Shown here one piece after another: positions 1,567 through 15,965 of a stretch of DNA of 24,000 bases. How positions within the stretch are numbered: the first letter of the stretch is position 1; every line of letters starts with the position of its first letter. The DNA is from Rhodospirillales bacterium 20-60-12. GTDB lineage: Bacteria > Pseudomonadota > Alphaproteobacteria > Acetobacterales > Acetobacteraceae. The stretch covers positions 9,739 through 33,738 of the forward strand of contig NCAP01000015.1 in assembly GCA_002255495.1 (NCBI GenBank), read 5' to 3'. The position numbers and the translations under genes were made by a program. Below the pieces are notes generated by a model. It had not been told where the DNA came from and did no database searches. It saw nothing but the letters and a program-made list of their open reading frames with translations.

Positions 1567-2682
1567 ATGAGCCGCATCCGTTTACTCGTGGGGACCAAAA
1601 AAGGCGCATTCATCATGACCGCAGATGGCGCGCGCGAGGACTGGTCGATATCCGGCCCGTTTTTCCCTGGATGGGAAATCTATCACGTGAAAGCCTCGCC
1701 GGTGAATCCGGACCGGATTTACGCCTCGCAAAGCTCGGGCTGGTTTGGCCAATTGATCCAGCGCTCGGACGATGGCGGCGTAACTTGGAACGCTGTCGGC
1801 AATGATTTCCAATATGACGGCGTGCCAGGCACACACCAAAATTTCGATGGCACCAAGCAGCCCTGGGCATTCAAGCGAGTGTGGCATCTCGAACCATCAC
1901 TGACCTGTGCCGAGACCGTTTATGCCGGGGTTGAGGACGCCGCACTTTTCAAATCGAGCGATGCCGGGGCAAGCTGGCAGGAGCTTTCGGGCCTGCGCCG
2001 ACACGAAACAGGATCGGCCTGGCAACCCGGTGCCGGCGGCATGTGCCTGCACACCATCATTCTCGATCCAACAAATCCAGACCGCATGTTCATTGCGATT
2101 TCAGCAGCCGGCGCGTTTCGCACCGACGATGCCGGCCAAAGCTGGCGGCCGATCAATCGTGGCCTTGTTTCGAGCTTCATGCCCGATCCCCATGCCGAGA
2201 TCGGCCATTGCGTGCATCACATCGCCATGCATCCGGCCCGGCCGAACAGCCTGTTCATGCAAAAACATTGGGACATCATGCGTTCGGATGATGCAGGCGA
2301 TTCCTGGTTTGAAGTGAGCGGCAACCTGCCTACCGATTTCGGATTTGTTATCGACGTGCATGCCCACGAACCCGAGACCCTCTATGTCGTGCCGATCAAG
2401 AGCGATACCGAGCATTTTCCCTTGGATGGAAAATTGCAGGTCTTTCGCAGCCGCAGCGGTGGCCATGATTGGGAGCCGCTGGTCAATGGCCTGCCCCAGG
2501 AGAATTGTTATGTGAACGTATTGCGAGACGCCATGGCGATCGATCGCATGGAATCCTGCGGCATTTATTTCGGCACCACCGGCGGTCAGGTTTATGTCTC
2601 GGCTGATTCAGGGGATCATTGGCAGACCGCGGCCCAGAATCTGCCTGCAGTGCTCTCGATCGAAGTGCAAACTTTGCCGTGA
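1567..2682 (+). CDS. BNR/Asp-box repeat beta-propeller protein (sialidase-like or Ycf48-like fold), function unknown
   Basis: Six S/T-x-D-x-G-x-(T/S)-W type Asp-boxes: [32 protein letters not shown], a degenerate SRSGGHDW, and SADSGDHW. No signal peptide is evident. A purine-rich RBS (cagggggcg) lies upstream of the ATG. Confidence 0.8.
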
Positions 2683-2984
2683 ATACGCTCATCCATGTTG
2701 AGCTGCCAGCCAGCCTTGGCCTGATCGCGCGCGCCGATCGGCATGTGGCTCTCAGCGTGCCCGCCCCGGTGACGCAGCGGCGGATTCTCGATGCGCTGGA
2801 AGCGCTTTATCCGGTTCTGCGCGGCACCATCCGCGATCAGAGCAGCCAGGTCCGCCGCCCGTTCATCCGGTTCTTTGCCTGCAAAACCGACTTATCGCAT
2901 GAGCCCCCCGATGATCCTCTGCCGCCGGGCATTTGCGACGGCACGGAGATGTTCCTCATCGTCGCCGCCATTGCTGGTGGATGA
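2679..2984 (+). CDS. MoaD/ThiS-family ubiquitin-like beta-grasp protein with a C-terminal Gly-Gly
   Basis: The GTG at 2679 overlaps the TGA of the upstream gene (GTGA). The ~101-aa product ends ...[15 protein letters not shown], matching the MoaD/ThiS pattern DGDEVxxxPPVxGG. The listed longer ORF (from 2619) would overlap the propeller gene by 64 nt. Confidence 0.7.
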
Positions 2985-2997
2985 TGCATCACGACAC

Positions 2998-4782
2998 TCA
3001 AAATGTCGCCAGCGCATCGACATTGATAAAACTGCCGGCGCGGGTATGGCCAGGGATCGGGTGGAATTGCACGCCGGCTTGAATATCCAGCGACAAAATC
3101 GTGCCGAGCGTGTAGTTGGCGCCTAAGCCCAGGCTGGCCAGATCGGTCGATGCGGGATTTCCCGGCTGGGTTTTCACGTCAAATACATGGGCATAATCGA
3201 AAAATATATCGGGCCGCAGCGCATCCGGGCCGATTCCACCTGAAATCCGCGAGAGCAGCGTGAACGGTGGCGCGCGCAATTCATTGCCGATCACCACACC
3301 TTCGCTGCCGCCGGCAATATCGGTCGGGTAGCCGCGCACACTGCCAAAGCCGCCGATGCTGAGCTGCTCGCTGGGCAACAAATTACTGCTCGCCACCTGC
3401 GCTGTCAGGCGGGCCCGCCAGATAAAGCCGCGCGGCAGGGCGGTCAGCCGTTCAACATCGAGCCGGGCATAGACATACTCGGCGCGGGCGTAATAAGTGC
3501 CGCCATTATTGGCCCCGGGCTGAAAGGCAGAGTTGGTATTGCCGCCGGTCAAGCCGCCGGGGCTGAGCACCAATTGCGGCACCAGCGTGGTCTGGCCGTA
3601 ATGATCGCGCAGAGTGGCGCTATAGGTGATCGGAAATTGATCGATCTCGGCACTCGATGTTGAAACGGTCGCGCCGCCGAAAGCGATGTTGTTGTCACTG
3701 GTTTTATAATCATAACCCAGACTGATCTGCTGGATCAGCCCGTGCCAGTCCGGCAACGGATGATCGAAGCGCAGGCTCGCCTGGCCGCTGTGGCCGACAT
3801 TGACGAAACCACTGGGCAGACGAGGAACAACCCGTTCATAATCGCCGAAAATGCGGATCGTATCGCGTGAGGCGAGCGGAATGGTCAGGCTGATCGAATG
3901 GGCCAGATAGCGCGGCAGGTTTGTGCCGCTGGCAAACAGATGCGGATCGCGCAAAAAATCATCGCTGGTGGTGAATTGATAGCCCAGCAAAATACCCCGC
4001 CCCAGCACATTGCCGGTCAGTAGGCCAAGCTTCCAGCGATCATCGCCGGTTAGCGCATTGCCCGCATTATCAAAGCCGATGGTCGCGGCGAGCGGCAATT
4101 GATCATGCACGACCAGATTGAGATTGGTGGTGCCTGCCACGGCTCCTGGCGAGGCCAGCAGATCAACCCGGCGGAACGGATTTTCGTTCAGCCAGGCCAG
4201 ATCCGATTCGACCCGGTTGATATTGATCGTCTGACCCGGCTTGACCCGCAAAGCGGATTTGATCTGCGCGCTTGAGAACCAATGATTATCCCGCACGGTC
4301 ACGGCGCCGACGCGATATTCAAACACCAGATATTGCACAACGCCGGTTGCGATATTTTGCGGCGGCAGCACGACATCGACAAACGGATGGCCCTCGGCGC
4401 GATAGAGCAGAATGATCCGCGCTTCGATGGCATTTAACGTCGCCATGCTCGCCGGCGCGCCGATAAAGCCCAATAAAATCGCGCTGAGTTGTGGCCCGAA
4501 CGCGACATCCTCGCCACTCACGCCCGGGTTGTTCACCCCGGCCGGAACAAGCAATGACGGTGCGCCGACCAGCCGGAGCCCGAGCAAGCGCGGCACAATG
4601 ATACGCGGGCTGCCCGGCGGTGCGGCAGGCGGCGGCGGCACGACAATCCGCGGGGCTTGCAGAGGTTTGAGAACCGGTGGCGCCAGCTGATTATAATTTT
4701 GCGCCAAAGCAGGTGCGGCCAGCGACAATGACGCAGCCCAAATGCCTGCCGTGAGGCAGTGTCGAGCCATTAGCTTGCTCAT
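2998..4782 (-). CDS. Two-partner secretion transporter TpsB (ShlB/FhaC/HecB family Omp85 beta-barrel)
   Basis: Signal peptide MSKLMARHCLTAGIWAASLSLAAPALA-Q, followed by a Pro-rich linker and POTRA-like region. The conserved loop-6 motif is present (FGSVRGYP) and the protein ends in Phe (…ALATF), as outer-membrane barrels typically do. The start ATG overlaps the tpsA stop (ATGA at 4779-4782). Confidence 0.9.
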   Translation of the reverse strand: MSKLMARHCLTAGIWAASLSLAAPALAQNYNQLAPPVLKPLQAPRIVVPPPPAAPPGSPRIIVPRLLGLRLVGAPSLLVPAGVNNPGVSGEDVAFGPQLSAILLGFIGAPASMATLNAIEARIILLYRAEGHPFVDVVLPPQNIATGVVQYLVFEYRVGAVTVRDNHWFSSAQIKSALRVKPGQTININRVESDLAWLNENPFRRVDLLASPGAVAGTTNLNLVVHDQLPLAATIGFDNAGNALTGDDRWKLGLLTGNVLGRGILLGYQFTTSDDFLRDPHLFASGTNLPRYLAHSISLTIPLASRDTIRIFGDYERVVPRLPSGFVNVGHSGQASLRFDHPLPDWHGLIQQISLGYDYKTSDNNIAFGGATVSTSSAEIDQFPITYSATLRDHYGQTTLVPQLVLSPGGLTGGNTNSAFQPGANNGGTYYARAEYVYARLDVERLTALPRGFIWRARLTAQVASSNLLPSEQLSIGGFGSVRGYPTDIAGGSEGVVIGNELRAPPFTLLSRISGGIGPDALRPDIFFDYAHVFDVKTQPGNPASTDLASLGLGANYTLGTILSLDIQAGVQFHPIPGHTRAGSFINVDALATF

Positions 4783-7700
4783 GGCGCGCTCGCGGTGGTG
4801 ATACCGATGATAAAGGGCTTGCCGCTGGCACCACTTGGTTGCACCGCGCTGACCGCACCCGCGACCACCACGGGTGTGAGTTTGGTCGGTTGTAGTTTGG
4901 CCGCTATGGAGCCGACCGCGGCTGTGGGTTTGGCGCTGGTTTTCGGCGTGGTGGGCGTGGCTGTCATTTTATTCGCGATGCTGCTCGGGCCGGTCGCCGT
5001 TTTGCTGCCGGTATCGGTTATTTTCGGTGTTGCAACGGTCGGCTTGGCGGGGCTTGTCGTGGCGGACTTGGCCGGCATTGTCACAGATGATGTTTTTGCC
5101 GCTGCCGAAATTGTTGCAACCGTGGACGGCTTTGCCGCTGTTGTGGTCGACACCTTGCTGGATGAGGCCGCGCCAGTCGTTTTTGCAGCACTGCTGGTCG
5201 CCGGTGTTTTCGCCGCCGCCTGTGAACTGCTCGATGAACTTGACGAACTCGAGTCCGTTGCTGGCGCAGTCTGTGTTGCGAAATTCTGGCTCGCCGCGGC
5301 GGTATCAAGCAAAGGTTGATTTGCGGGATTGGCCGCAGCCGTTACGGCCCCAGCCATGGCGGTTGCAGCCGCCGCCGCGGCATCATTGAGCGCCGACGTG
5401 GTATCCCCCGCGCTATTGGCGGCACTCGCTGTACCGGCCGCGCCGCTTGCGGCATTGGTGGCCCCGATGATCGTATCGAGTGCGGCGCTGATCGCGCTCG
5501 ATGCGGAATCGGTCGCGCTGCTGGACGAAGCGGGGATCACCGCAAGCGCGCCCGCCGAAGGCGAGGCGCCGACGCTGTTATCAATTCCCGTCAAGGCCGA
5601 TATCAACGCCGCGACGCCGGTGCTCGTGGCGGGTGTGGCCGGTGCGGTCGCTGCGGCACTGCCCGGGCTCAATGCAGCTGCAGCCGCATCGGCGGCAGCA
5701 GAGGTCCCATTTCCTATGGCGGAAACAGCCTTACCCGTGGAGATATAGTCGCTGAACATGGAACTTGCAGCGCCGGCCGTCGGGCTTGCCGCGGCAGGAG
5801 CCGCAGGTGTCAGGCTGGTCGCCACCGTGTAGCTCTGCATCATCTGATAATCCTGCGATCCGGCAAAACTCGTCTGGCTGCCATCGGCGCTGTTATATTG
5901 GCCTGCCGGTCCGGATGCAGCGGCGACGGCCGTTCCCACCGCCGTGAAAGCGGCGCTGAACGCAGCTTTCGCCGTCGCTTCGACTGAGGTCTGCGTGCCC
6001 AGCGCCATATCGCCATTTGGATTATTGATGGTGCTGCCTGTCAGCCCCGTGTCCGGCGTGCTCGGCACGACCGGTGCAGGTGCTGCCGGCGTGACCGAGA
6101 CCAGACTGGCGGTCGGTGAATACGAGCTTATGCCCAAGGATGGCCCGGTGCTGCCATTGGCGTTGAGCAATGAATTGGACAGCGGTGCAATGGCATTCAC
6201 GCTGGCGTCACCGGGCGTGCTTGCAGCTTGGGTCGTCGCAGCTTGGGTGGTCGCAGCCGGGGTGTCCGCCGTGCTAGGCGTACTCGGCGTGCTCGGGGCC
6301 GGCGGATTGAAGTTTTTACTGAACAGATTGCCTGCTGGCGTCACAGAATTGAGACCGCTATTGGCGATAATATCCTGGCCGTTGCTCAGCGGCGTACCGG
6401 CCACGGAATCTGGCGTCAGGCCGCTCGGGCCATAGCCCAGCGGATCGCTCGATCCACCGCCGCCGCCTTTGGCGGCCGGCGCTGTCGCATCATAAATGCC
6501 GCTCGTCGTCTGGCCGGAATCATAGCCTTGAACGCCCATATCCGTCGTGTAAGGGGCGGCACTGGTGCCGCCGGTGCCTTTGCCGGCCTTGGTGCCAGGC
6601 CCCGGTGCGGTAACGGTCGTTGGATTGATGGAGGCCGCACCGGCCGAGGAGATACCCGTGGCGCCGACGATCGAGCCCGACCCGAACGAGCCTGCCTGCA
6701 TCCCGCCCTGTCCCGGCATGCCGGCGAACGAAGCGCCGGCCGAAGAGACCCCGGTTGCGAAAATGATCGAGCCGGGTGCGAGCCCCGTAGGCGTCAGCCC
6801 GCCTTGGCCGAACAAATCAGCGAGCGAGGTGCCCGCAGCACTGTCACTTTGCGCAGCCTGCGCCAAACTGCCGGTAGGAATGCCGTTATTCATGACGCTG
6901 TTGCTGACATTGATCGGCGCGCCATCGAGGCCGAGCGCGTCATAGCTGATCGTCGTCGTCATCATGGTGGCAGGATTCGGCAGCATGGTGTTGGTCGGAT
7001 CATTGATCAAGGCAACATCCACCATCACCGAATTGCCCGCGTCAAAACCACTCAAATTGAGCGGTTTGGTCACACCATTATTGCTGCCTGCGGTTTTCGG
7101 CGCGATCGTGGATTTGCCTGCCGGCGGCGCGCGTGTGGTCAGCCCGATTTTGATCAGCTGCGCGGCCAATTGATTGGCTTTCGCAATGATGGCAGCGGCA
7201 GCCGCGGCGGCCGAATTGGTCGGCGTTTTAGGCGGTGGGTTTTTCGGCGGCGGCGGGGGGTTCTTCGGCGGCGGCGGCGGATTTTTCGGCGGCGGCGGCG
7301 GCGGTGCCGCCAAGCCCGGGAACAAGCCGGTCTGGAAAGCAAGGTAAGGCAGCGCGCGCGGAGTCGCCGGGAACGTCCAGATTGCCGGCGCAAAACCACC
7401 GAAGCGGGCGGTGCCGGTGGTGGATGAGACAGTAAATGTGCCGGTCGAGCCGCTGCCATTGCCGATCGCTTTTGACGTCGCCGACAAAGCAGGGTCGAAA
7501 AATCCGTTCGCCACACTGCCGGAGCCGACCAGTGCGCCGACATCCGCACCCGAGCCGCCGCTGACCGCACCGGCAGCATAAATATTCGTCGCGGTATCGT
7601 AATTCAGCCCGATGACGCCACCGACATAGGTCACGGCACTGCCGATACTGGGACCACCAGAGACAGCGCCTGTCGCATAACTATCGCTGACCGGGCCGGA

Positions 7701-10700
7701 ATAATTCCACCCGACGAGCCCGCCCACGCTTTCACCATTGAGCGAACCCGTATTGCCCGCCCCAGTTCCGCCCTGCACAGTGCCGGTGGCGAAACTTTGC
7801 TTGATGGTCGCGTAATTGACCGCGACCAGACCGCCGATATTACTGCCGCTGCCGGCACTGACATTGCCCGTTGCATAGGATTGCGAAATGGTCCCGAAAT
7901 TCGACGCGACCAATCCGCCAATCGTTGAATTACTACTTGTGCTGAGCACCTGCCCGCTTTCGCCAGAGAGTATGATTGTTCCGTTATTTCCACCCGCGAC
8001 ACCACCGATATAACTATTGGGTGCAGTCACACTGGCAGCAGAAAAACTGTTGCTGATCGTGCCATCATTATATCCAACGATGCCACCCACGCCACGGCCT
8101 TGTGGACCCGATGACGAGGTGACAGCGCCGCTGACCGTGACATTATTGATCACGCCCGCGCTATCGTTGATGCCCGCGACCGGACCGAACCCGCCGATCG
8201 GCTCACCCCCGCCAGGCGATGTTGCGGTATTGAGGATGGAGACATTGCCGAAATTGATATTCTCGATCGTCCCTGCATTATCAACGAACATCCCGAAATT
8301 CCCGCCCGTATTATCGGTGATCGAGAGATTATTGATGCTATAGCCGAACCCGTTGAGCACGCCCGCAAAACGCGAAATCGGCGTGAAATTGCCGGTGAGA
8401 TTGATATTGGTATTCAGCGCGAAACTGGCACCCGGCGCGATCGCGATTTGAGTGAGATCATGTTGGCTGTCGAGCAATTGATAATAAATGAGCTTGCCCA
8501 CGACATTATTATAAACGCCGCTCGGATTGGGAAAGCCCGGCGGATGATCAAACACGGTTAAAGTGCCATAAGGAATTTGAAAGCCGCCCGGCAGAAGCAC
8601 ATAGCCTTGGTCGGTGGCTTTACTATCGGCATATAAGGTTGCTTGCGCGCCGGTGCCGGACACCGAAATGGGTGCAGTACCGATAATATTATGCACCGCC
8701 GCAATGTTCAAAAATCCCGCCGCACTCAAGCCGTTGACGCCGCCGAAATTGGTGATGTCAATCGAGCCACTTGTCGCCAGCGCCAGCGCACCGGTTTGCC
8801 CCGCCAATTGCGTGATGGCGTTGCCGGCATTGTTCAAATTCACCGTCCCCCCTTCGAGCAGCAATTGAGAAACGACAAGCGGTACGCTCTGCCCGATCGC
8901 TGTGGGGTTTGATAATGCCAGGGTAAAATTGGGAATATTGGCAACCGCCTGATCCATCGTCAGGCTGGCGCCACTGCCGGCGAAAATAAGCGTGTTTGTG
9001 GCGTTCAATGGTATGATGCCGGTCGCGCCTATCTCGGCATCGGCCGGGGTGGCGCCCAGGCCGCTGAGATATTGCGCAAAGATCGATTTGGCGCTGGTCG
9101 ATGCGCTGTTGAGCCAAACCGTATCGGCGGCAATCGCCAGCCCGGCCACGGAACCTGTTGTGCCGGCCAGCAAAGTTTGCCCGCCATCGGCGGTGAGAAC
9201 CAGATTTTTGCCGGTGGCGATGCTGCCCGAGGGCAGTAAAAACTCATAACTTCCATCGGCGAAACTTGTCGCGTTACCGCTGCTGAGCAGGGAATTCAGC
9301 GCCTTGCCGTTCAACACGGCATTCACCACCTGGCCCGATTGCACGCTGCCGCCGATCGAGGCGGAACTGACCGTGCCGGAAATAACATCCGGTGCCGACG
9401 GCGCCTGCCAGGTGAGATAGGGGAACAAAGCGCCGGCCGCGATTTGCCAGGTGCCGGCGGCAAAGCCCGCTGGCAAAATACTGGATAAAGCGGCACTCGT
9501 CAGGCCCGTGCCGAACCCGCCCGCGCTGTCGGCGGTCAGCCCGCTGGTCGATTGATCCCAATAGACATTGCTGCCGGTCGCGGCACTGCCAAGGACCTGC
9601 CCGCTATCCCCACCGATTGTCACATTTTGGTCGGTGGCGGTGTCGCGGACGATGCCGATCGCCAGATCGCGCGCCAAATTGCCACCCGATACCGACCCCG
9701 CGAGGCCGCCCAATGCAACACCGTTGGCATTATTCGACGCTGCCGTGGTGACACTGCCCGCGCTATAGGAATCCTCAACCACGCCGCCCGTGATGCTGCC
9801 CGCCAGACCACCGAGTGCGACTGGACTGGTGCCGGCAGATGGTCCCGTGCCGGGCCCCTGCCAGCCGACCGCAGAGCCTGCAAAATCCTGCGCCAAAGTC
9901 CCGGCATTCTGCGCACCCACCAGGCCGCCGACATCGCCGCTGCCGGTCAGAGCGACGCTGCCGACCGCACTTGATTGCTCGATCATGCCACTATTGGCAC
10001 CGGCCAGCCCGCCTGCATGGCTGATCCCGACACCACCATGGCCCGTAACCGTTCCCGACGCCGCGACCCCGGCAATGATGCCCGCATTATCCCCAGCCAG
10101 AATGCCGGTATCGCCCACGCCATTATTCGCAATCGCCGCATTGCTCAGCGTCAGATCATAAATCACCGCGGGGCTCGCCAGGGAGCTGAACAGCCCGACC
10201 GCCCCAGTGCCATTGACCGTGAGGCCGGAAATCGTCAGCCCTTGACCATATAACGTCCCCGCAAACCCCGCCGCGATAGGCGTAAAATTCGCACCTGCCG
10301 CATTGATCGCGCGGCCCAATGCGTAAATGCCGGTCTGGTTGCTCCCCAGCGCCTGCAAATTCGCCAGGGAATTCACCAGCATATAGGCGGTCACCTGCGA
10401 AGTGACGCCGGGATTAACCGCAATGCCGGCCGAATAATCGACCGGCGCCGAATAGCCGCCGGCCGGGTTATAGAAAATCGTCACATGGCCGGTGCTGCCG
10501 GCGAAATTGATCTGGCCGTTCAACGCGACAGCACCGCTGCCATCGCCGGTGTTATCGGCCCGAAGCGTGAGGCTGCCCGATCCGCTCTGCGTCACGCTGA
10601 CACCGGCATTGAGGATGATATTGTGATAGGCGCTCAGCGTCAGGCTGTTCGAGCCCGACCATGCGACATTCGCGGCGATATTGATGTCACCCGCTTGCTT

Positions 10701-11933
10701 GCCCCCGGCACCGGTTTGCAGCGTGACATTGCCGGCCGCCAAAGCCGCCTGCAGGCTCGCGACCGTCAGCACCGAATTATCGACATTGCTGATAAAGCTC
10801 CCCGTGCCCGCCGTGGCGGTTGAGGGGCCGGTGGCCGCGATTGTCAGATTTTCGGGGTCGAGCAATAATTCACCGCCGCTGCCGCCCGGTGCATTCAGCG
10901 CAACCTGGCCGGTGAAAGCCAGATGCCCGGCGCTGGAGACTTCGACCATGCCGCCCTTGGCCTGCGCCAGGGTTGGCCTTGCATCGATATGGCCCGAAAA
11001 ATCGGTCGATTTGGCAGACATGATCACGACATGGCCGCCGCTGCCATCGTGATTATGCGCAGCGAGCGTGCCGGAAACCGTGGCGGCGCCGCCGGCACTC
11101 AGCCAGATCTGACCGCCGCGGCTGGTGGTGCCGCTTGCCGCGACCGTGCCCCCGGTATTTCCCGCCATGGCATAGACATTGCCCTGCGCCGCATCGAGTG
11201 CGGCAGCGGCAGCCGCGATCTCGCCGCTTTGGCTGACATTGCCGCCGCCCGAAATCGCCACCGCGACATTACCGTCCTTCGCACCGGCATCGAGCATGAC
11301 CTGATTGCCCGCGACCAAAGCCGCCGTGCCGTTGGGCGCCGTGATGCTGCCCTGATTGGCGACATTCTGACCGATCAGAACGACATCGCCTGAGGTCGAT
11401 GAAATGGATCCCTGATTGAGCACGTTGCCCGGCCCGCTGCCCGCCGCACTCAGCGCGCCGCCGGCCATGAATTGCGGGTTACTGATATCGCGCGAGGAGG
11501 CAACAAAACTGCCCCCGGTGACAATTTTGCCCCCCGCACCGATCACCACGCCGGCGGGATTGATGAGGTAAATACTGCCCGTGCCCGTCAGCGAGCCCAG
11601 GATGCTCGATTGCTGACCACCGGTCACCCGATTGAGCGTCGCCCCGGAACCGTTAGCGATATTGACCTTATTGCCCTGGCCGATCGAAAAATCCCGCCAA
11701 TCGATCACGCCGCGCGATGTCGTTTGATGGATCTGCAATGAATTGCCCGACTGGGCGAGCGAGCCCGCACCGGCTACAAAATGCCCGCCCGAAGGCAATT
11801 GCGGCGGGTTGGCACGTGCTGCCAGCGGCGTGAACACCAGGGCAACACTGCAAAGCAATGCGCGGCGACTGCAGGGCCTGCACAACCATAAATTGTTGCC
11901 TGCACAAATCTCGATCGTTGCGAATCTGTCCAT
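4779..11933 (-). CDS. Giant TpsA exoprotein (2384 aa): filamentous-hemagglutinin-type TPS domain, beta-helical repeats, two GLUG-type repeat modules, a Pro-rich repeat and a long low-complexity tail
   Basis: N-terminal secretion domain (nt ~11030-11810): LPSGGHFVAGAGSL…IDWRDFSIG…ATLNRVTGGQQSSILGSL…IYLINPAGVVIG, i.e. the NPNG-like motif of the haemagglutination-activity domain. Many GGLAG/GGLVG/GGVAG (GLUG) units follow. The start is uncertain: ATG at 11933, or a downstream TTG giving MCRPCSRRALLCSVALVFTPLAARA-NPP. Confidence 0.9.
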   Translation of the reverse strand: MDRFATIEICAGNNLWLCRPCSRRALLCSVALVFTPLAARANPPQLPSGGHFVAGAGSLAQSGNSLQIHQTTSRGVIDWRDFSIGQGNKVNIANGSGATLNRVTGGQQSSILGSLTGTGSIYLINPAGVVIGAGGKIVTGGSFVASSRDISNPQFMAGGALSAAGSGPGNVLNQGSISSTSGDVVLIGQNVANQGSITAPNGTAALVAGNQVMLDAGAKDGNVAVAISGGGNVSQSGEIAAAAAALDAAQGNVYAMAGNTGGTVAASGTTSRGGQIWLSAGGAATVSGTLAAHNHDGSGGHVVIMSAKSTDFSGHIDARPTLAQAKGGMVEVSSAGHLAFTGQVALNAPGGSGGELLLDPENLTIAATGPSTATAGTGSFISNVDNSVLTVASLQAALAAGNVTLQTGAGGKQAGDINIAANVAWSGSNSLTLSAYHNIILNAGVSVTQSGSGSLTLRADNTGDGSGAVALNGQINFAGSTGHVTIFYNPAGGYSAPVDYSAGIAVNPGVTSQVTAYMLVNSLANLQALGSNQTGIYALGRAINAAGANFTPIAAGFAGTLYGQGLTISGLTVNGTGAVGLFSSLASPAVIYDLTLSNAAIANNGVGDTGILAGDNAGIIAGVAASGTVTGHGGVGISHAGGLAGANSGMIEQSSAVGSVALTGSGDVGGLVGAQNAGTLAQDFAGSAVGWQGPGTGPSAGTSPVALGGLAGSITGGVVEDSYSAGSVTTAASNNANGVALGGLAGSVSGGNLARDLAIGIVRDTATDQNVTIGGDSGQVLGSAATGSNVYWDQSTSGLTADSAGGFGTGLTSAALSSILPAGFAAGTWQIAAGALFPYLTWQAPSAPDVISGTVSSASIGGSVQSGQVVNAVLNGKALNSLLSSGNATSFADGSYEFLLPSGSIATGKNLVLTADGGQTLLAGTTGSVAGLAIAADTVWLNSASTSAKSIFAQYLSGLGATPADAEIGATGIIPLNATNTLIFAGSGASLTMDQAVANIPNFTLALSNPTAIGQSVPLVVSQLLLEGGTVNLNNAGNAITQLAGQTGALALATSGSIDITNFGGVNGLSAAGFLNIAAVHNIIGTAPISVSGTGAQATLYADSKATDQGYVLLPGGFQIPYGTLTVFDHPPGFPNPSGVYNNVVGKLIYYQLLDSQHDLTQIAIAPGASFALNTNINLTGNFTPISRFAGVLNGFGYSINNLSITDNTGGNFGMFVDNAGTIENINFGNVSILNTATSPGGGEPIGGFGPVAGINDSAGVINNVTVSGAVTSSSGPQGRGVGGIVGYNDGTISNSFSAASVTAPNSYIGGVAGGNNGTIILSGESGQVLSTSSNSTIGGLVASNFGTISQSYATGNVSAGSGSNIGGLVAVNYATIKQSFATGTVQGGTGAGNTGSLNGESVGGLVGWNYSGPVSDSYATGAVSGGPSIGSAVTYVGGVIGLNYDTATNIYAAGAVSGGSGADVGALVGSGSVANGFFDPALSATSKAIGNGSGSTGTFTVSSTTGTARFGGFAPAIWTFPATPRALPYLAFQTGLFPGLAAPPPPPPKNPPPPPKNPPPPPKNPPPKTPTNSAAAAAAAIIAKANQLAAQLIKIGLTTRAPPAGKSTIAPKTAGSNNGVTKPLNLSGFDAGNSVMVDVALINDPTNTMLPNPATMMTTTISYDALGLDGAPINVSNSVMNNGIPTGSLAQAAQSDSAAGTSLADLFGQGGLTPTGLAPGSIIFATGVSSAGASFAGMPGQGGMQAGSFGSGSIVGATGISSAGAASINPTTVTAPGPGTKAGKGTGGTSAAPYTTDMGVQGYDSGQTTSGIYDATAPAAKGGGGGSSDPLGYGPSGLTPDSVAGTPLSNGQDIIANSGLNSVTPAGNLFSKNFNPPAPSTPSTPSTADTPAATTQAATTQAASTPGDASVNAIAPLSNSLLNANGSTGPSLGISSYSPTASLVSVTPAAPAPVVPSTPDTGLTGSTINNPNGDMALGTQTSVEATAKAAFSAAFTAVGTAVAAASGPAGQYNSADGSQTSFAGSQDYQMMQSYTVATSLTPAAPAAASPTAGAASSMFSDYISTGKAVSAIGNGTSAAADAAAAALSPGSAAATAPATPATSTGVAALISALTGIDNSVGASPSAGALAVIPASSSSATDSASSAISAALDTIIGATNAASGAAGTASAANSAGDTTSALNDAAAAAATAMAGAVTAAANPANQPLLDTAAASQNFATQTAPATDSSSSSSSSSSQAAAKTPATSSAAKTTGAASSSKVSTTTAAKPSTVATISAAAKTSSVTMPAKSATTSPAKPTVATPKITDTGSKTATGPSSIANKMTATPTTPKTSAKPTAAVGSIAAKLQPTKLTPVVVAGAVSAVQPSGASGKPFIIGITTASAP
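7224..7304 (-). repeat. In-frame 21-bp tandem repeat inside tpsA encoding PPPPPP-KN / PPPPP-KN / PPPPP-KN / PPP-KT
   Basis: Read directly from the plus strand: …ggtttttcggcggcggcgggggg ttcttcggcggcggcggcgg atttttcggcggcggcggcggcgg. That is about 3.5 units of (CCG)n-AAR-AAY. Confidence 0.9.
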
Positions 11934-11965
11934 CTTGAAACATTAGGCAACTTGCTGCCACATCG

Positions 11966-11987
11966 AAACTATCAGAAATGATAGGTT
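11966..11987 (-). promoter_or_regulatory. Lux-box-like dyad (CT-N12-AG) in the 60-bp luxR-tpsA spacer
   Basis: AAACTATCA-GAAA-TGATAGGTT. The core perfect inverted repeat CTATCA/TGATAG spans 11969-11984. It is ~20 bp long and centred ~43 bp upstream of the tpsA ATG. It could instead be a weak luxR terminator hairpin. Confidence 0.3.
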
Positions 11988-11993
11988 TTACAT

Positions 11994-12740
11994 TTACAGC
12001 GTGACATAGCCCTGAGTGACCGCCAGAGCAGCGAGATGGGTGCGCGAGGCGGCGCTATATTTGTTCCGGGCGTTGAGCAGATGAAACCGCACGGTTGGTT
12101 CGGACACGCCCATAATGGCGCCCATTTCGCGATCCGAATGGCCGCGCACCAATAATGCCAGGCATTCGATCTCGCGGGCCGTCAGGATGGGCGCCGCCTG
12201 GCCGGGCTCCGGCCCCTGTTCGATCCGCTCGGCTGCTTCGAACGCTGCCCGCCCGACAATGGTGAGGAATGTCTGCTCGGCCGGTCTAAGGGATTGACGC
12301 GCGCCACCCATGGCCACCAGACCAAGCGCATTATCCACCCCGCGCATCGGGATCGCCATGCCCTCGAGATAGCCGAACGGGGCCGCCGCAGCGACCACCA
12401 CGCGGCCTGGATCACGGACCGGCAACACATTGATCAATGCACTCCAGGTGAGCGCACGGCCCGAACTGCGTGCCCAACGCGGCAGCGGGTCGATCAGCAA
12501 AAAATCCGATTCCATATATAATTTGATCCAAGCCTCGGACCAGTTGGTGAAATGAAATGGCTGGCCCGAAGCCGCTTTCGGGCCCGAGACAAAACCACTG
12601 GCCGCCGCGGTGATGCCAAGCGGCTCGATGATAGCTTGCAGTGCGGCGGCCAAGGAGGGCACCGAGGATTGGCTCCGGCTTTCCGTGACGAATGCAAAGG
12701 CCATGGCGTTCAAAGCCTCGTCCGATACAACATCGCTCAT
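11994..12740 (-). CDS. LuxR-family quorum-sensing-type transcriptional regulator (autoinducer-binding domain plus LuxR HTH)
   Basis: The six ligand-domain invariants occur with exact TraR/LuxR spacing: W-x3-Y-x8-DP-x13-W-x27-G, within AWIKLYMESDFLLIDPLPRWARSSGRALTW…YLEG. The HTH invariants E-x3-L-x5-G lie in REIECLALLVRG. Start ambiguity: GTG 12806 (longest ORF), ATG 12740 (reported here), or ATG 12704. Confidence 0.85.
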   Translation of the reverse strand: MSDVVSDEALNAMAFAFVTESRSQSSVPSLAAALQAIIEPLGITAAASGFVSGPKAASGQPFHFTNWSEAWIKLYMESDFLLIDPLPRWARSSGRALTWSALINVLPVRDPGRVVVAAAAPFGYLEGMAIPMRGVDNALGLVAMGGARQSLRPAEQTFLTIVGRAAFEAAERIEQGPEPGQAAPILTAREIECLALLVRGHSDREMGAIMGVSEPTVRFHLLNARNKYSAASRTHLAALAVTQGYVTL

Positions 12741-12915
12741 CGGTGACACACGCGCAGTCGCCTGCCGGGAGTCATACTCACTGAGGCACTGCGCATGAAT
12801 TGGCACTCCATGGACATGATCATCATGCCTGAATAACGGGCGGGATCAACCAAAGAAAATCGAGGCTTGAACCGGACCGGCAAACACTCTCCCTCAGAGC
12901 CGTCAAACAGGAAAT

Positions 12916-12929
12916 TATTTTATAAAATA
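12916..12929. promoter_or_regulatory. Perfect 14-bp A/T palindrome in the AT-rich divergent luxR / cysD intergenic region
   Basis: TATTTTATAAAATA is its own reverse complement. It sits in the only strongly AT-rich stretch of the window (~12905-12975), between divergently transcribed genes. Confidence 0.3.
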
Positions 12930-13092
12930 CAATTTCATAGTAAATTTTCCTCAATTACATGATTTTTCCGGCCTTAAGTTGCACAATTTGGCCTGACGGG
13001 CGTATCAGACCTGCAACCGGTCGATGATCGTGATCTCAAATCGTGCAATGGCCCATTCTGGACCGCACCCGTATGAAGTTTGATAATATCCT

Positions 13093-14049
13093 ATGGCGGA
13101 GCCGCTCATGCACCCTATCAATCTGACCGCCCCGCGCCCCCGCCAGGGCCCGGCCCTGAGGCATTTGGCACGCCTGGAGGCGGAGAGCATTGCCATCATG
13201 CGCGAAGTGGTTGCCGAAGCTGAACGGCCGGTGATGCTCTATTCGGTGGGCAAGGATTCCGCCGTGATGCTGCATCTGGCACGCAAAGCCTTCTTTCCCG
13301 GCAAGCCGCCATTTCCGCTATTGCATGTCGATACGACTTGGAAATTCCGCGCGATGTATGAATTGCGCGACCGCATGGCGCGCGAAAGCGGGATGGAATT
13401 GCTGGTCTATCAGAACCCACAAGCCAAAGCCCGCGGCATTAATCCCTTCGATCACGGATCGGCCTTGCATACCGATATGTGGAAAACCGAAGGCCTCAAG
13501 CAGGCGCTTGACCAGTACGGGTTCGACGCCGCTTTCGGCGGCGCGCGGCGGGATGAGGAAAAAAGTCGTGCCAAAGAGCGCATCTTTTCCTTCCGATCAG
13601 CCAATCATCGGTGGGATCCGAAAAACCAGCGCCCGGAATTATGGCATCTCTATAACGCCCGCAAGGCACGCGGCGAATCGATCCGGGTATTTCCGATTTC
13701 CAACTGGACTGAGCTTGACATCTGGCAATATATCCAGCTTGAATCGATCCCCATCGTGCCGCTTTATTTCGCGCAAGAGCGCCCCACCGTGATACGTGAC
13801 GGCATGATATTGATGGTCGATGATGAGCGCTTTCCGCTGGCCGAAGGGGAGACCCCGGTCATGCGCTCGATCCGCTTTCGCACATTGGGCTGCTACCCGC
13901 TCACCGGCGCCGTCGAGAGCCATGCGACCAGCTTGTCCGAGGTGATCCAGGAAATGCTGCTGACCAAAACATCCGAACGCCAGGGCCGCGCGATCGATCA
14001 TGATCAATCCGCGTCGATGGAAAAGAAAAAACAAGAGGGATATTTCTGA
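13093..14049 (+). CDS. cysD: Sulfate adenylyltransferase subunit 2
   Basis: Near-colinear with E. coli CysD as recalled: [76 protein letters not shown], and the C-terminal KK.EGYF. An alternative start at ATG 13108 has a GGAG six nt upstream. Confidence 0.95.
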
Positions 14050-14051
14050 TC

Positions 14052-15965
14052 ATGACGATCATCGATCATCACTCATCCTACCAGACCCAGGACCTGATCG
14101 CCGCCGATATCGATGCGTATCTGCTGCAGCATCAGCATAAATCCCTACTGCGCTTCATCACCTGCGGCTCGGTCGATGATGGCAAATCAACATTGATCGG
14201 CCGATTGCTCTATGACAGCAAAATGATTTTCGAGGATCAGCTGGCCGCCCTCGAAGCCGATAGCAAGCATCTCGGCACCCAAGGCCAAAATATCGATTTT
14301 GCCCTGCTCGTCGATGGGCTGGCAGCCGAGCGCGAGCAAGGCATCACCATCGATGTCGCTTACCGATTTTTTGCCACCGAGAAGCGCAAATTCATCGTGG
14401 CCGATACGCCGGGCCATGAGCAATATACCCGCAACATGATCACCGGCGCATCGACGGCTGACCTCGCGGTGATCCTCATCGATGCCCGCAAAGGCGTACT
14501 GACACAGACCAGACGCCATAGCTATCTCGCTCAGCTGATCGGCATTCGCCATATCGTGCTGGCGGTGAACAAAATGGATCTGGTCGATTACGACCAGGCG
14601 ACATACGAATCGATACTCGCCGATTATCGTAACTTCGCTGCCGGCATCGGCATCCATTCATTCACCCCGATTCCTATCTCGGGCTTCATCGGCGATAACA
14701 TCACCAGCCGTTCAGCCAATATGCCTTGGTATGACGGCCCTTGCCTGATGACGCATCTGGAATCGGTCGAGGTCGATTCCACCGCCGATCAGGCCAAGCC
14801 GTTCCGCATGGCGGTGCAATGGGTCAACCGGCCGAATTTGGATTTTCGCGGCTATTCAGGACAAATTTCCAGCGGCAGAATCAGGCAGGGCGATCTGCTC
14901 AGGGTTTTACCCTCGGGCAAAACATCGCGCCTGTCGCGCATCGTCACGTTCGATGGTGATCTCGATGAGGCGGTCGCGGGACAATCAGTGACATTATGCC
15001 TCGCCGATGACATCGATTGCTCGCGCGGCGATGTGCTGAGTGTCGCTGACGAGCCGCCACAAATTGCCGATCAGTTTGAAGCCACCATCGTCTGGATGGC
15101 CGAGGAACCGATGCTCGCCGGGCGCACATATTGGCTCAAACTCGGCACGCAAATGGTCGGCGCGACGATCCAGGCGCCGAAATATCAGATCAATGTCAAC
15201 ACGCTGGAGCATCGCGCCGCCAAGACTCTCGAACTCAATGCCATCGGCGTCGCCAGCCTGACCACAGACAAGCCGATCGTTTTCGAACCTTACAGCGAAA
15301 ATCACGATTTTGGCGGATTCATTCTGATCGACAAAATGTCAAATGCGACGGTCGCAGCGGGCATGTTGAATTTCTCCCTCCGCCGCAGCCAGAATATCCA
15401 TCGGCAAGCCATCGATGTGACCCGCGAAGCGCACGCCAATTTGAAAAACCAAAAGCCGGCCATCCTGTGGTTCACCGGCCTCAGCGGTGCCGGCAAATCA
15501 ACCATCGCCAATCTGGTCGAGAAAAAACTCCACCGGATGAACCGCCATACATTTTTGCTCGATGGGGACAATATCCGCCACGGCTTGAACAAGGATCTCG
15601 GATTCACCGATGCCGACCGCGTGGAAAACATCCGCCGCGTGGGCGAAGTGGCAAAATTGATGGCAGATGCCGGGCTGATCGTCATCACCGCCTTCATCAG
15701 CCCGTTCCGCGCCGAACGTGAAATGGTGCGCAACATGATGGCGCCTGGCGAGTTCTATGAAATTCACATCGATACCTCGCTCGCCGAAGCCGAACGGCGC
15801 GATGTCAAAGGGCTTTACAAAAAGGCGCGCGCGGGAAAACTCGCCAACTTCACCGGCATCGATTCCCCCTATGAAGCACCGCTGACAACGGAAATTCACA
15901 TCGATACCACTATTCTCACCCCCGATGAGGCCGCCGCACTCATCGTCGAAGAATTACTGAAATGA
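14052..15965 (+). CDS. cysNC: Bifunctional sulfate adenylyltransferase subunit 1 / adenylylsulfate (APS) kinase (CysN-CysC fusion, NodQ-like)
   Basis: N-terminal GTPase motifs: [21 protein letters not shown]. The C-terminal APS kinase carries the P-loop GLSGAGKST and [16 protein letters not shown]. The start lies 2 nt after the cysD stop. Confidence 0.95.

Follow-up and report, generated by a model that had tools for sequence, protein, structure and literature searches.

Does a LuxR-type receptor gene that lies directly before a two-partner secretion (TPS) operon control that operon, and is such an arrangement conserved? The question is raised by a stretch of 24,000 nucleotides from contig NCAP01000015.1 of Rhodospirillales bacterium 20-60-12, called the window below, in which a luxR-family gene, tpsA, and tpsB form three co-directional minus-strand open reading frames (ORFs). 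An earlier note on this DNA had described the three genes as a module set between unrelated housekeeping genes and had proposed a circuit leading from an acyl-homoserine lactone (AHL) signal to a giant exoprotein. The ORF positions and Pfam domains agree with the described gene order, and the flanking gene content agrees with the housekeeping surroundings. In summary, comparison with related loci makes it probable that luxR and a 20-bp box located behind it represent a conserved regulatory cassette, which is here coupled to tpsA-tpsB and activates it.

The luxR-family gene (11994..12740, minus strand) encodes 248 amino acids (aa) followed by a stop codon, with an N-terminal autoinducer-binding domain and a C-terminal GerE/LuxR helix-turn-helix domain. 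It is followed by tpsA (4779..11933, minus strand), which encodes a 2384-aa two-partner secretion exoprotein, and by tpsB (2998..4782, minus strand), which encodes a 594-aa ShlB/FhaC-type transporter of the Omp85 family with POTRA domains. The stop codon of tpsA and the start codon of tpsB overlap by 4 bp. The spacer between luxR and tpsA is exactly 60 bp in length (11934-11993; 37% GC), as the earlier note had measured.

A predicted lux-type operator box (11967..11986) was found in this spacer. It is a 20-bp palindrome, CCTATCAtttcTGATAGT, which reads ACCTATCAtttcTGATAGTT on the gene strand, and its core of the form CTATC-N6-GATAG (CTATCATTTCTGATAG on the gene strand) occupies 11969-11984. 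The box begins 8 nt past the luxR stop codon (10 nt for the core), and about 43.5 nt separate its centre from the A of the tpsA ATG downstream. A -10-like hexamer, TAATGT (11940..11945, minus strand), starts 23 nt behind the box and stops 6 nt short of the tpsA ATG. It is known that lux, tra, and las boxes are CT-N12-AG-type palindromes of 18 to 20 bp centred near -42.5 at class-II LuxR-dependent promoters. From the spacing between the box and the hexamer, transcription is expected to start about 43.5 bp downstream of the box centre, and the spacer palindrome has both the length and, relative to this inferred start, the position of a lux-type box. No other perfect match to CTRTC-N6-GAYAG exists in the 24-kb window. 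Strain variants show five differences in the 60-bp spacer, all outside the box and the TAATGT hexamer. Neither a canonical -35 hexamer in the tpsA promoter region nor a strong terminator between luxR and tpsA was found. A hairpin GGCAG-CAAG-TTGCC between the box and the -10 hexamer was also considered as an element and was rejected; it is weak, is not conserved in the strain variant, and is probably a chance occurrence.

Is the box common behind other luxR genes of this kind? Neighbourhoods of LuxR homologues (40-70% identity) were taken from public assemblies and scanned for CTRTC-N6-GAYAG, with one mismatch allowed, within 400 nt of the luxR stop codon. A box was found downstream of luxR in 39 of 50 loci, or in 36 of 47 after dropping two duplicates and one doubtful match, against a background of 16 matches in 326 kb (0.02 per 400 nt) for the rest of the same loci. 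Several of the apparent misses are cut by a contig end, are truncated after the first half-site, or contain two mismatches. The flanks of the box are also conserved, with C at position -1 in all 36 loci and T at position +16 in 32 of them. Thus, the element is the 20-bp ACCTATCAtttcTGATAGTT, which is of the classical CT-N12-AG lux/las type. A TAnnnT hexamer follows the box at a distance of 22-24 nt in 23 of the 36 loci (at exactly 23 nt in 17 loci) and almost never occurs at other offsets. In contrast to these homologues, none of the more distant LuxR relatives in Caulobacteraceae, Sphingomonadaceae, and an actinomycete (38-47% identity; a single-protein scan of reference genomes) has a box.

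Two loci separate the box from the luxR gene. In L007, the cargo, as I call the large gene behind the cassette, is a convergent gene of 1042 aa, and the box, 3.2 kb away from luxR, is part of the cargo promoter and keeps the usual spacing to the -10 hexamer. In L031, two identical boxes lie 1 kb apart (L031:3087 and L031:4120), and the second is directly upstream of an autotransporter gene. In these loci, the box follows the cargo promoter rather than the 3′ end of luxR. As a separate observation, the box of L034 and L036 is cut after the first half-site (CTATCAGAT followed by GGG...), about 35 nt past the luxR stop codon, as if an insertion had interrupted the cassette.

It was also found that the box covaries with the receptor. 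The residue x in the sequence SExTVRFH, which precedes the recognition helix, is P or A in all 23 loci whose half-site is CTATC (P215 in the window) and is T, R, or S in all 12 loci whose half-site is CTGTC. The covariation holds in 35 of 35 loci, and in a rough neighbour-joining tree the switches are spread over several branches; the loci share kinship and do not count as 35 independent observations. Such a pattern would be expected if each LuxR recognises its adjacent box. Since the box is conserved, its distance to the -10 hexamer is fixed, and a residue of the DNA-binding domain covaries with it, direct control of tpsAB by the adjacent LuxR is well supported on comparative grounds. This part of the proposed circuit from LuxR to a giant exoprotein is therefore supported, while the luxR-tpsA-tpsB triad is not conserved, as described below.

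What does the cassette precede elsewhere? The genes for LuxR homologues with 55-70% identity are followed by those for Hint_2 proteins, autotransporters, or other large proteins. At least eight loci (L001, L004, L015, L016, L023, L024, L025, and L030) have a large Hint_2-domain protein as the cargo, four (L020, L031, L041, and L056) have a classical autotransporter, L029 has a PATR-repeat protein of 1857 aa, and L045 has a PEP-CTERM protein with a Laminin_G_3 domain; in other family loci, the cargo is a large protein with no Pfam match. No sequence similarity was detected between TpsA and the other LuxR-linked cargos, and in the rough tree the window LuxR is sister to a mainly Hint_2-linked group. 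The order luxR-tpsA-tpsB was found only in the window and its near-identical strain variants. The nearest TpsA orthologues, P0239 (53% identity at a query coverage of 96%) and P0240 (46% identity), are encoded in tpsA-tpsB pairs with no luxR, and no box exists in the roughly 300 nt upstream of their tpsA genes. The same tpsA-tpsB pairing is seen in the orthologous loci L099 and L100. The earlier note had treated the triad as a unit and had named its lack of conservation as a reason to give up the proposal; literally, the triad is not conserved. However, the cargo varies while luxR and the box stay, and the luxR-less TpsA orthologues have no box. Thus, the conserved unit is luxR with its operator-promoter. 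As far as these alignments indicate, a more general luxR-box-exoprotein pattern is conserved and is here joined to an adhesin-like TpsAB pair.

Two side observations concern the Hint_2-linked loci. The Hint_2 cargos begin with MSGVYSG... or MSNTLST... and have no Sec signal peptide. In L004 (L004:8701-13940), a luxR-box-Hint_2 cassette, with a potassium-channel gene before it, lies between purC-purS and purQ-purL, a position suggesting that cassettes land inside otherwise conserved housekeeping clusters.

The following mechanism is proposed for the window. LuxR would be made from its own AT-rich promoter, would dimerise upon binding a ligand of the AHL type, and would then bind the palindrome at 11967-11986. 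From a site about 43.5 bp upstream of the transcription start, it would act as a class-II activator of a promoter whose -10 element is TAATGT (11940-11945). The transcript would start at or next to the tpsA ATG, being leaderless or nearly so, and would cover tpsA and the overlapping tpsB. TpsB, an Omp85 protein with POTRA domains, would export TpsA by way of the TPS domain. TpsA, most likely a surface fibre or an adhesin, has a beta-helical GLUG region, a proline-rich linker, a long disordered tail rich in Ser, Thr, and Ala, and a conserved C-terminus. The signal may come from the same cell or only from neighbours.

Is the receptor of the AHL type? The ORF 11994-12806 matches Pfam Autoind_bind (PF03472; 72.2 bits against a cut-off of 23, E 4.3e-20) and GerE (PF00196; 44.3 bits against a cut-off of 23.5, E 1.4e-11). 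The hallmark residues were mapped via an ungapped HMMER alignment to LasR and via family alignments, using W57, Y61, D70, P71, W85, and G113 of the TraR ligand domain and E178, L182, and G188 of the TraR DNA-binding domain as the reference. In the 248-aa numbering, W71, Y75, D84, P85, W99, and G127 align with W60, Y64, D73, P74, W88, and G113 of LasR, while E190, L194, and G200 align with the DNA-binding triad, and the spacing is ungapped. All nine positions show little or no variation in the family alignments, and the earlier statement that the regulator keeps all nine LuxR-family residues with TraR spacing was confirmed. An AlphaFold (AF2) model of LuxR made with 17 homologues has a predicted local distance difference test score (pLDDT) of 86.9, and its top 33 Foldseek matches in the PDB are full-length AHL receptors, namely CviR, SdiA, RhlR, TraR, LasR, and QscR, with probability 1.00. 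LuxR is only about 20-25% identical to any solved receptor and scores far below every NCBIfam equivalog cut-off. It has every computationally testable feature of AHL receptors of the TraR/LasR/LuxR type, and both sequence and model point to the binding of an acyl-homoserine lactone. On the other hand, the ligand-contact position of TraR Y53 and LasR Y56 is occupied by Trp, which is invariant across the whole family, and the position of LasR S129 is Ala.

The longest luxR ORF reaches GTG 12806, the border that had first been assigned to the module. That ORF exists, but the family homologues are mostly about 248 aa in length, and luxR therefore probably starts at ATG 12740. Public annotations disagree on this start (248 aa or 266 aa; window 12741-12806). 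An AT-rich stretch upstream of luxR (12873..13001) contains a putative sigma-70-like promoter, TTTACT-16-TAAAAT (12944 to 12917, minus strand), which matches the consensus and whose function is presumed from that match. An imperfect 20-nt AT-rich inverted repeat with the ends GGAAAATTT and AAATTTCC (12909-12951) overlaps this candidate promoter, and its ends are conserved in the strain variant L012. A different regulator of luxR may use the repeat as its operator.

Is the LuxR paired with a synthase? As the earlier note had reported for the 24 kb, a Pfam scan of the 23 window ORFs revealed no Autoind_synth or other acyltransferase-type synthase. The DNA to the left was read from contig DAICYS010000007.1 of the metagenome-assembled genome (MAG) GCA_027311525.1, of which the window is a 100% identical part, and no AHL synthase was found in the 8.4 kb beyond the left edge. 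In total, about 31 kb of this 99-kb contig, reaching about 20 kb from luxR in the direction of tpsB and 11 kb in the opposite direction, contains no synthase gene. None was found in the annotated contexts of the homologous loci L001-L016, and none is among the 25 families listed, out of 60, for the 96 mid-sized ORFs flanking 42 family loci, which is weak evidence. No luxI being adjacent, the window gene is a candidate LuxR solo, a term that in the strict sense means that the whole genome has no cognate luxI. The LeuA of the window shares 87% identity with proteins of Acidiphilium and 82-83% with those of Acidocella. Thus, the host, an uncultured Acetobacteraceae lineage known from metagenomes alone, is placed among the acidophilic Acetobacteraceae. 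AHL synthase genes have been found in only three species of acidophilic Acetobacteraceae, or 7% of those examined (PMC8776678), and a survey of Acidiphilium genomes revealed one LuxI homologue, which has no LuxR partner (PMC9040811). Since synthases are rare in this group, it is plausible that the window LuxR is a solo, eavesdropping receptor, as far as the 31 kb of contig covered here goes.

What is the output? TpsA matches the Pfam TPS domain (87.4 bits against a cut-off of 33.5, E 1.9e-24), GLUG, and the NCBIfam family adhes_NPXG (49.6 bits). Its N-terminal signal region, as read from the sequence, comprises aa 1-41 (11811..11933, minus strand), ending in RRALLCSVALVFTPLAARA and followed by NPPQ. 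The orthologues P0239 and P0240 have similarly long leaders of 44-49 aa, which supports ATG 11933 as the tpsA start. One public assembly starts TpsA 32 codons downstream (window 11838-11933; 2352 aa), removing most of the signal peptide. The TPS secretion domain spans aa 47-282 (11088..11795, minus strand) with an NPAG(V) motif at aa 125, and its matches among PDB sequences are EtpA (8e-33), HxuA, and HMW1. Two GLUG-type repeat blocks on the minus strand were recognised by a motif scan, one at about aa 560-760 (9654..10256) with GG[LIV][AV][GA] motifs at aa 641-742, and another at about aa 1280-1430 (7644..8096) with a Pfam Glug match at aa 1400-1425. A weak Pfam M26_N match covers aa 521-625. 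Between the two blocks, an Asn-rich part of the passenger coincides with a low-GC patch (8228-8536; about 49-51% against a mean of 60%).

The C-terminal part of TpsA (all coordinates on the minus strand) contains three copies of the proline-rich repeat PPPPPKN (aa 1544-1563; 7224..7316), with a DNA repeat period of 21 nt, and a low-complexity region of about 640 aa (aa 1641-2275; 5109..7013), 69% of which is Ala, Ser, Thr, Gly, or Pro. The TpsA of strain variant L012 matches aa 1-1876 at 98% identity, and beyond this part the lengths diverge by about 220 aa (2384 versus 2164 aa). The C-terminal segment (aa 2276-2384; 4782..5108), ending in GKPFIIGITTASAP, is 90% identical in L012, and an extreme C-terminal G(K/R)PFIIGIT (aa 2373-2384; 4782-4815) is common to TpsA and the 53%-identical P0239, although it comes behind hundreds of disordered residues. 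The N-terminal 1580 aa of TpsA match 1489 proteins at E<=1e-10, which constitute a large alphaproteobacterial family of TPS+GLUG(+MBG/YDG) proteins. The architecture is thus common in Alphaproteobacteria and not distinctive. TpsB matches ShlB (70.2 bits, 2.7e-19), POTRA_2 (26.4 bits), and POTRA (21.4 bits) in Pfam. A signal region and a TPS domain in TpsA with an adjacent POTRA-containing Omp85 protein define a type Vb two-partner secretion system, and the domain content suggests that TpsA is most likely a surface fibre or an adhesin.

Several points weigh against activation of an adhesin operon by an AHL-bound LuxR. The triad is restricted to one species-level lineage. Without a strong terminator behind luxR, read-through from the luxR promoter may contribute to tpsA transcription. 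The geometry of the promoter needs a tpsA mRNA with no leader or almost none, a plausible case in Alphaproteobacteria; an alternative is a downstream start codon such as the TTG at codon 17. I infer the adhesin role of TpsA from its domain content only. An endogenous signal is uncertain, given that no luxI lies nearby and that AHL synthases are rare in acidophilic Acetobacteraceae (PMC8776678; PMC9040811). The Trp at the position of TraR Y53/LasR Y56 and the Ala at the position of LasR S129 suggest that the ligand may differ from classical AHLs.

The last two points lead to a reading with the same mechanism at the DNA level but with a ligand other than an AHL, namely a small molecule from a host or a community, or an unusual endogenous signal. 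It is known that plant-associated and Photorhabdus LuxR solos sense host- or community-derived small molecules. I consider this reading rather unlikely for the window, where the WYDPWG motif, which is altered in the known non-AHL solos PluR, PauR, OryR, and XccR, is fully intact and where the best sequence and structure matches of LuxR are AHL-bound receptors; what speaks for it is the lack of synthase genes within about 31 kb and among the families listed beside 42 loci, the small number of synthase-bearing acidophilic Acetobacteraceae in the two surveys cited above, and the family-invariant Trp and the Ala in the pocket. The sign of regulation could also be reversed. LuxR could be a ligand-relieved repressor like EsaR, with the apo-protein blocking the tpsA promoter or luxR read-through until the signal releases it. 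A box between luxR and tpsA with no strong terminator could indeed serve as a roadblock, and repression is also possible from a box overlapping the -35 region. However, the conserved box-to-hexamer spacing of 22-24 nt places the box at about -43.5. Activators are known to bind at this position in promoters of the luxI, traI, and lasB type, while the -10 element is overlapped by boxes of the EsaR type. The lack of a canonical -35 hexamer is also as expected of activator-dependent promoters, and the repressor model is improbable to my mind.

It was also assessed whether the adjacency is incidental, with the palindrome being the luxR terminator or an unrelated repeat and tpsAB being controlled otherwise. 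Such a view can point to the unconserved triad and to the palindrome directly after the luxR stop codon, but it is very hard to sustain. The palindrome was rejected as a terminator or RNA element because the spacer RNA does not fold better than shuffled sequences (z = -1.49; a 6-bp AT-rich stem and no U-tract). Moreover, it is the sequence of the box and not pairing alone that is conserved, its spacing to the -10 hexamer is fixed, L007 and L031 have boxes at cargo promoters a long way from the 3′ end of luxR, and a LuxR residue covaries with a half-site base. A further alternative concerns the cargo, as TpsA may be a contact-dependent inhibition (CDI) protein or another toxin-delivery protein rather than an adhesin. 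Quorum sensing controls a TPS-type CDI locus in Burkholderia thailandensis, and other cargos of the LuxR family carry Hint domains, which are reportedly release modules in polymorphic toxins according to the literature of the Aravind group. In TpsA, however, a motif scan revealed no VENN, VDNN, or LYN pre-toxin motif, a Pfam scan revealed no toxin domain, low-complexity sequence makes up the C-terminal 800 aa, the tpsA stop overlaps the tpsB start and leaves no room for an immunity gene, and the TPS domain groups with EtpA, HMW1, and HxuA. Thus, toxin delivery has little chance of being the function, and these features indicate that TpsA is probably not a toxin.

The surroundings of the three genes are of the housekeeping type, with M3 peptidase, HbpS-like, and BNR-repeat genes on one flank and cysD, cysNC, cysQ, MAPEG, leuA, and mreBCD on the other. 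No tRNA gene, mobile-element gene, or Rfam match was found in the window. The GC content and the GC content at third codon positions of luxR, tpsA, and tpsB equal those of the flanking genes, and the composition therefore gives no sign of foreign origin. In a search for an empty insertion site, the leuA neighbourhoods of relatives (85-87% LeuA identity) were found not to be syntenic with the window, and a look-up of the window CysD returned no identical sequence. It had been noted that the only AT-rich spacers of the window bound the module; 12873-13001 is indeed by far its most AT-rich stretch (minimum 18% GC per 60 nt), while the 37% GC of the 60-bp spacer is equalled by other 60-nt stretches at 725-815, 976-1059, 8446-8520, 12489-12563, and 13990-14087. 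A 101-aa ORF (2679-2984, plus strand), which converges on tpsB, shares 4 nt with the end of the BNR gene; all three assemblies (L012, L102, and L103) include it as a gene, and it has no Pfam match. On the same contig, a 3853-aa VWD+Hint_2 protein and a 689-aa Hint_2 protein are encoded 1-8.4 kb past the left edge of the window (L103:1-7441). No box was found in the 368 nt upstream of the 689-aa Hint_2 gene; the promoter of the giant gene lies outside the DNA that was read. No locus of the LuxR family has a box upstream of luxR either. Thus, nothing indicates that the box serves autoregulation or a wider local regulon.

What would the locus mean if the wider pattern holds? I tentatively suggest, as a possibility that falls short of being probable, a previously undescribed system of uncultured acidophilic Acetobacteraceae, in which the members of a clade of AHL-type LuxR proteins, mostly with no local synthase, each have an operator-promoter cassette that has been repeatedly recombined before unrelated giant surface or secreted proteins (Hint-domain proteins, autotransporters, a PEP-CTERM lectin-like protein, and here TpsAB), with the receptor and the operator co-evolving. 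If so, the co-evolution of receptors and operators could insulate paralogous circuits, and signals, possibly from neighbouring species and not from kin, would remodel the cell surface by one giant protein at a time. Signal-controlled surface display would then evolve by the shuffling of promoter cassettes, and the family would supply orthogonal receptor/operator pairs. Most LuxR solos have no known target or ligand. Here, comparative genomics alone leads to a testable model with a 20-bp operator, a predicted transcription start, a candidate specificity residue, and a giant secreted output. If the pattern fails, the locus is an ordinary LuxR homologue beside an ordinary TPS operon. The family-wide cassette pattern is a more interesting result than the single locus. 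Little has been documented on the control of type V secretion by quorum sensing. A 2019 review calls the link between quorum sensing and type V secretion one in need of more study (PMC6567927). In the literature, I found no paper on a LuxR beside Hint-domain proteins, on a LuxR solo with a TPS operon, or on a lux box with a filamentous haemagglutinin.

How does the locus compare with known systems? It shares with the canonical AHL receptors (LuxR, TraR, LasR, RhlR, CviR, SdiA, and QscR) the two-domain architecture, the hallmark residues, the predicted fold, and a 20-bp CT-N12-AG palindrome about 43.5 bp upstream of the inferred start. It differs from them in its sequence identity of about 20-25%, in the lack of an adjacent luxI and of a box upstream of luxR, and in the Trp at the Tyr53/Tyr56 contact. 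Among LuxR solos, PluR and PauR control the pcf clumping operon, and XccR, OryR, PluR, and PauR have altered ligand-pocket residues and respond to non-AHL signals. The window resembles XccR/OryR with pip and PluR/PauR with pcf in having an orphan LuxR beside its presumed target and a lux-type box in the target promoter, and it further resembles the Photorhabdus PluR/PauR systems in a cell-surface or aggregation output. In contrast to these four solos, the window LuxR keeps the AHL-type pocket motif, its target is a type Vb secretion operon, and targets are swapped within its family among unrelated giant proteins. The substitutions W57M and Y61W of OryR/XccR/PsoR-type solos are not seen, W71 and Y75 being kept, and no proline iminopeptidase gene lies nearby, while XccR is cited with an adjacent pip (PMC9040811).

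On the side of the secretion system, TpsAB resembles EtpBAC, HMW1ABC, and HxuCBA in that EtpA, HxuA, and HMW1 have the TPS domains nearest to that of TpsA and in that a ShlB/FhaC-type TpsB is encoded alongside. In contrast to those systems, its gene order is tpsA then tpsB, its exoprotein has GLUG repeats and a long disordered tail, its regulator is different, and no EtpC/HMW1C-type glycosyltransferase gene exists between 2998 and 13092 or in the flanks. CdiBAI and BcpAIOB systems are characterised by features that TpsA lacks, namely a VENN/NxxLYN motif, a toxin domain, and a downstream immunity gene. The prodomain of FhaB has a layout of a beta-helix, a proline-rich region, and a conserved extreme C-terminus, and a likeness of Bordetella FhaB/FhaC to the giant TpsA with the same three elements may be suggested as a speculation; no similarity beyond the TPS domain is detectable, and FhaB is under BvgAS and not under a LuxR-type receptor. 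The same domain types occur in the alphaproteobacterial TPS+GLUG(+MBG/YDG) exoproteins of Asaia, Azospirillum, Bradyrhizobium, Azorhizobium, and others, none of which appears to have been characterised. The two closest TpsA orthologues among them are encoded without the luxR-box cassette, by which the tpsA-tpsB operon of the window is set apart.

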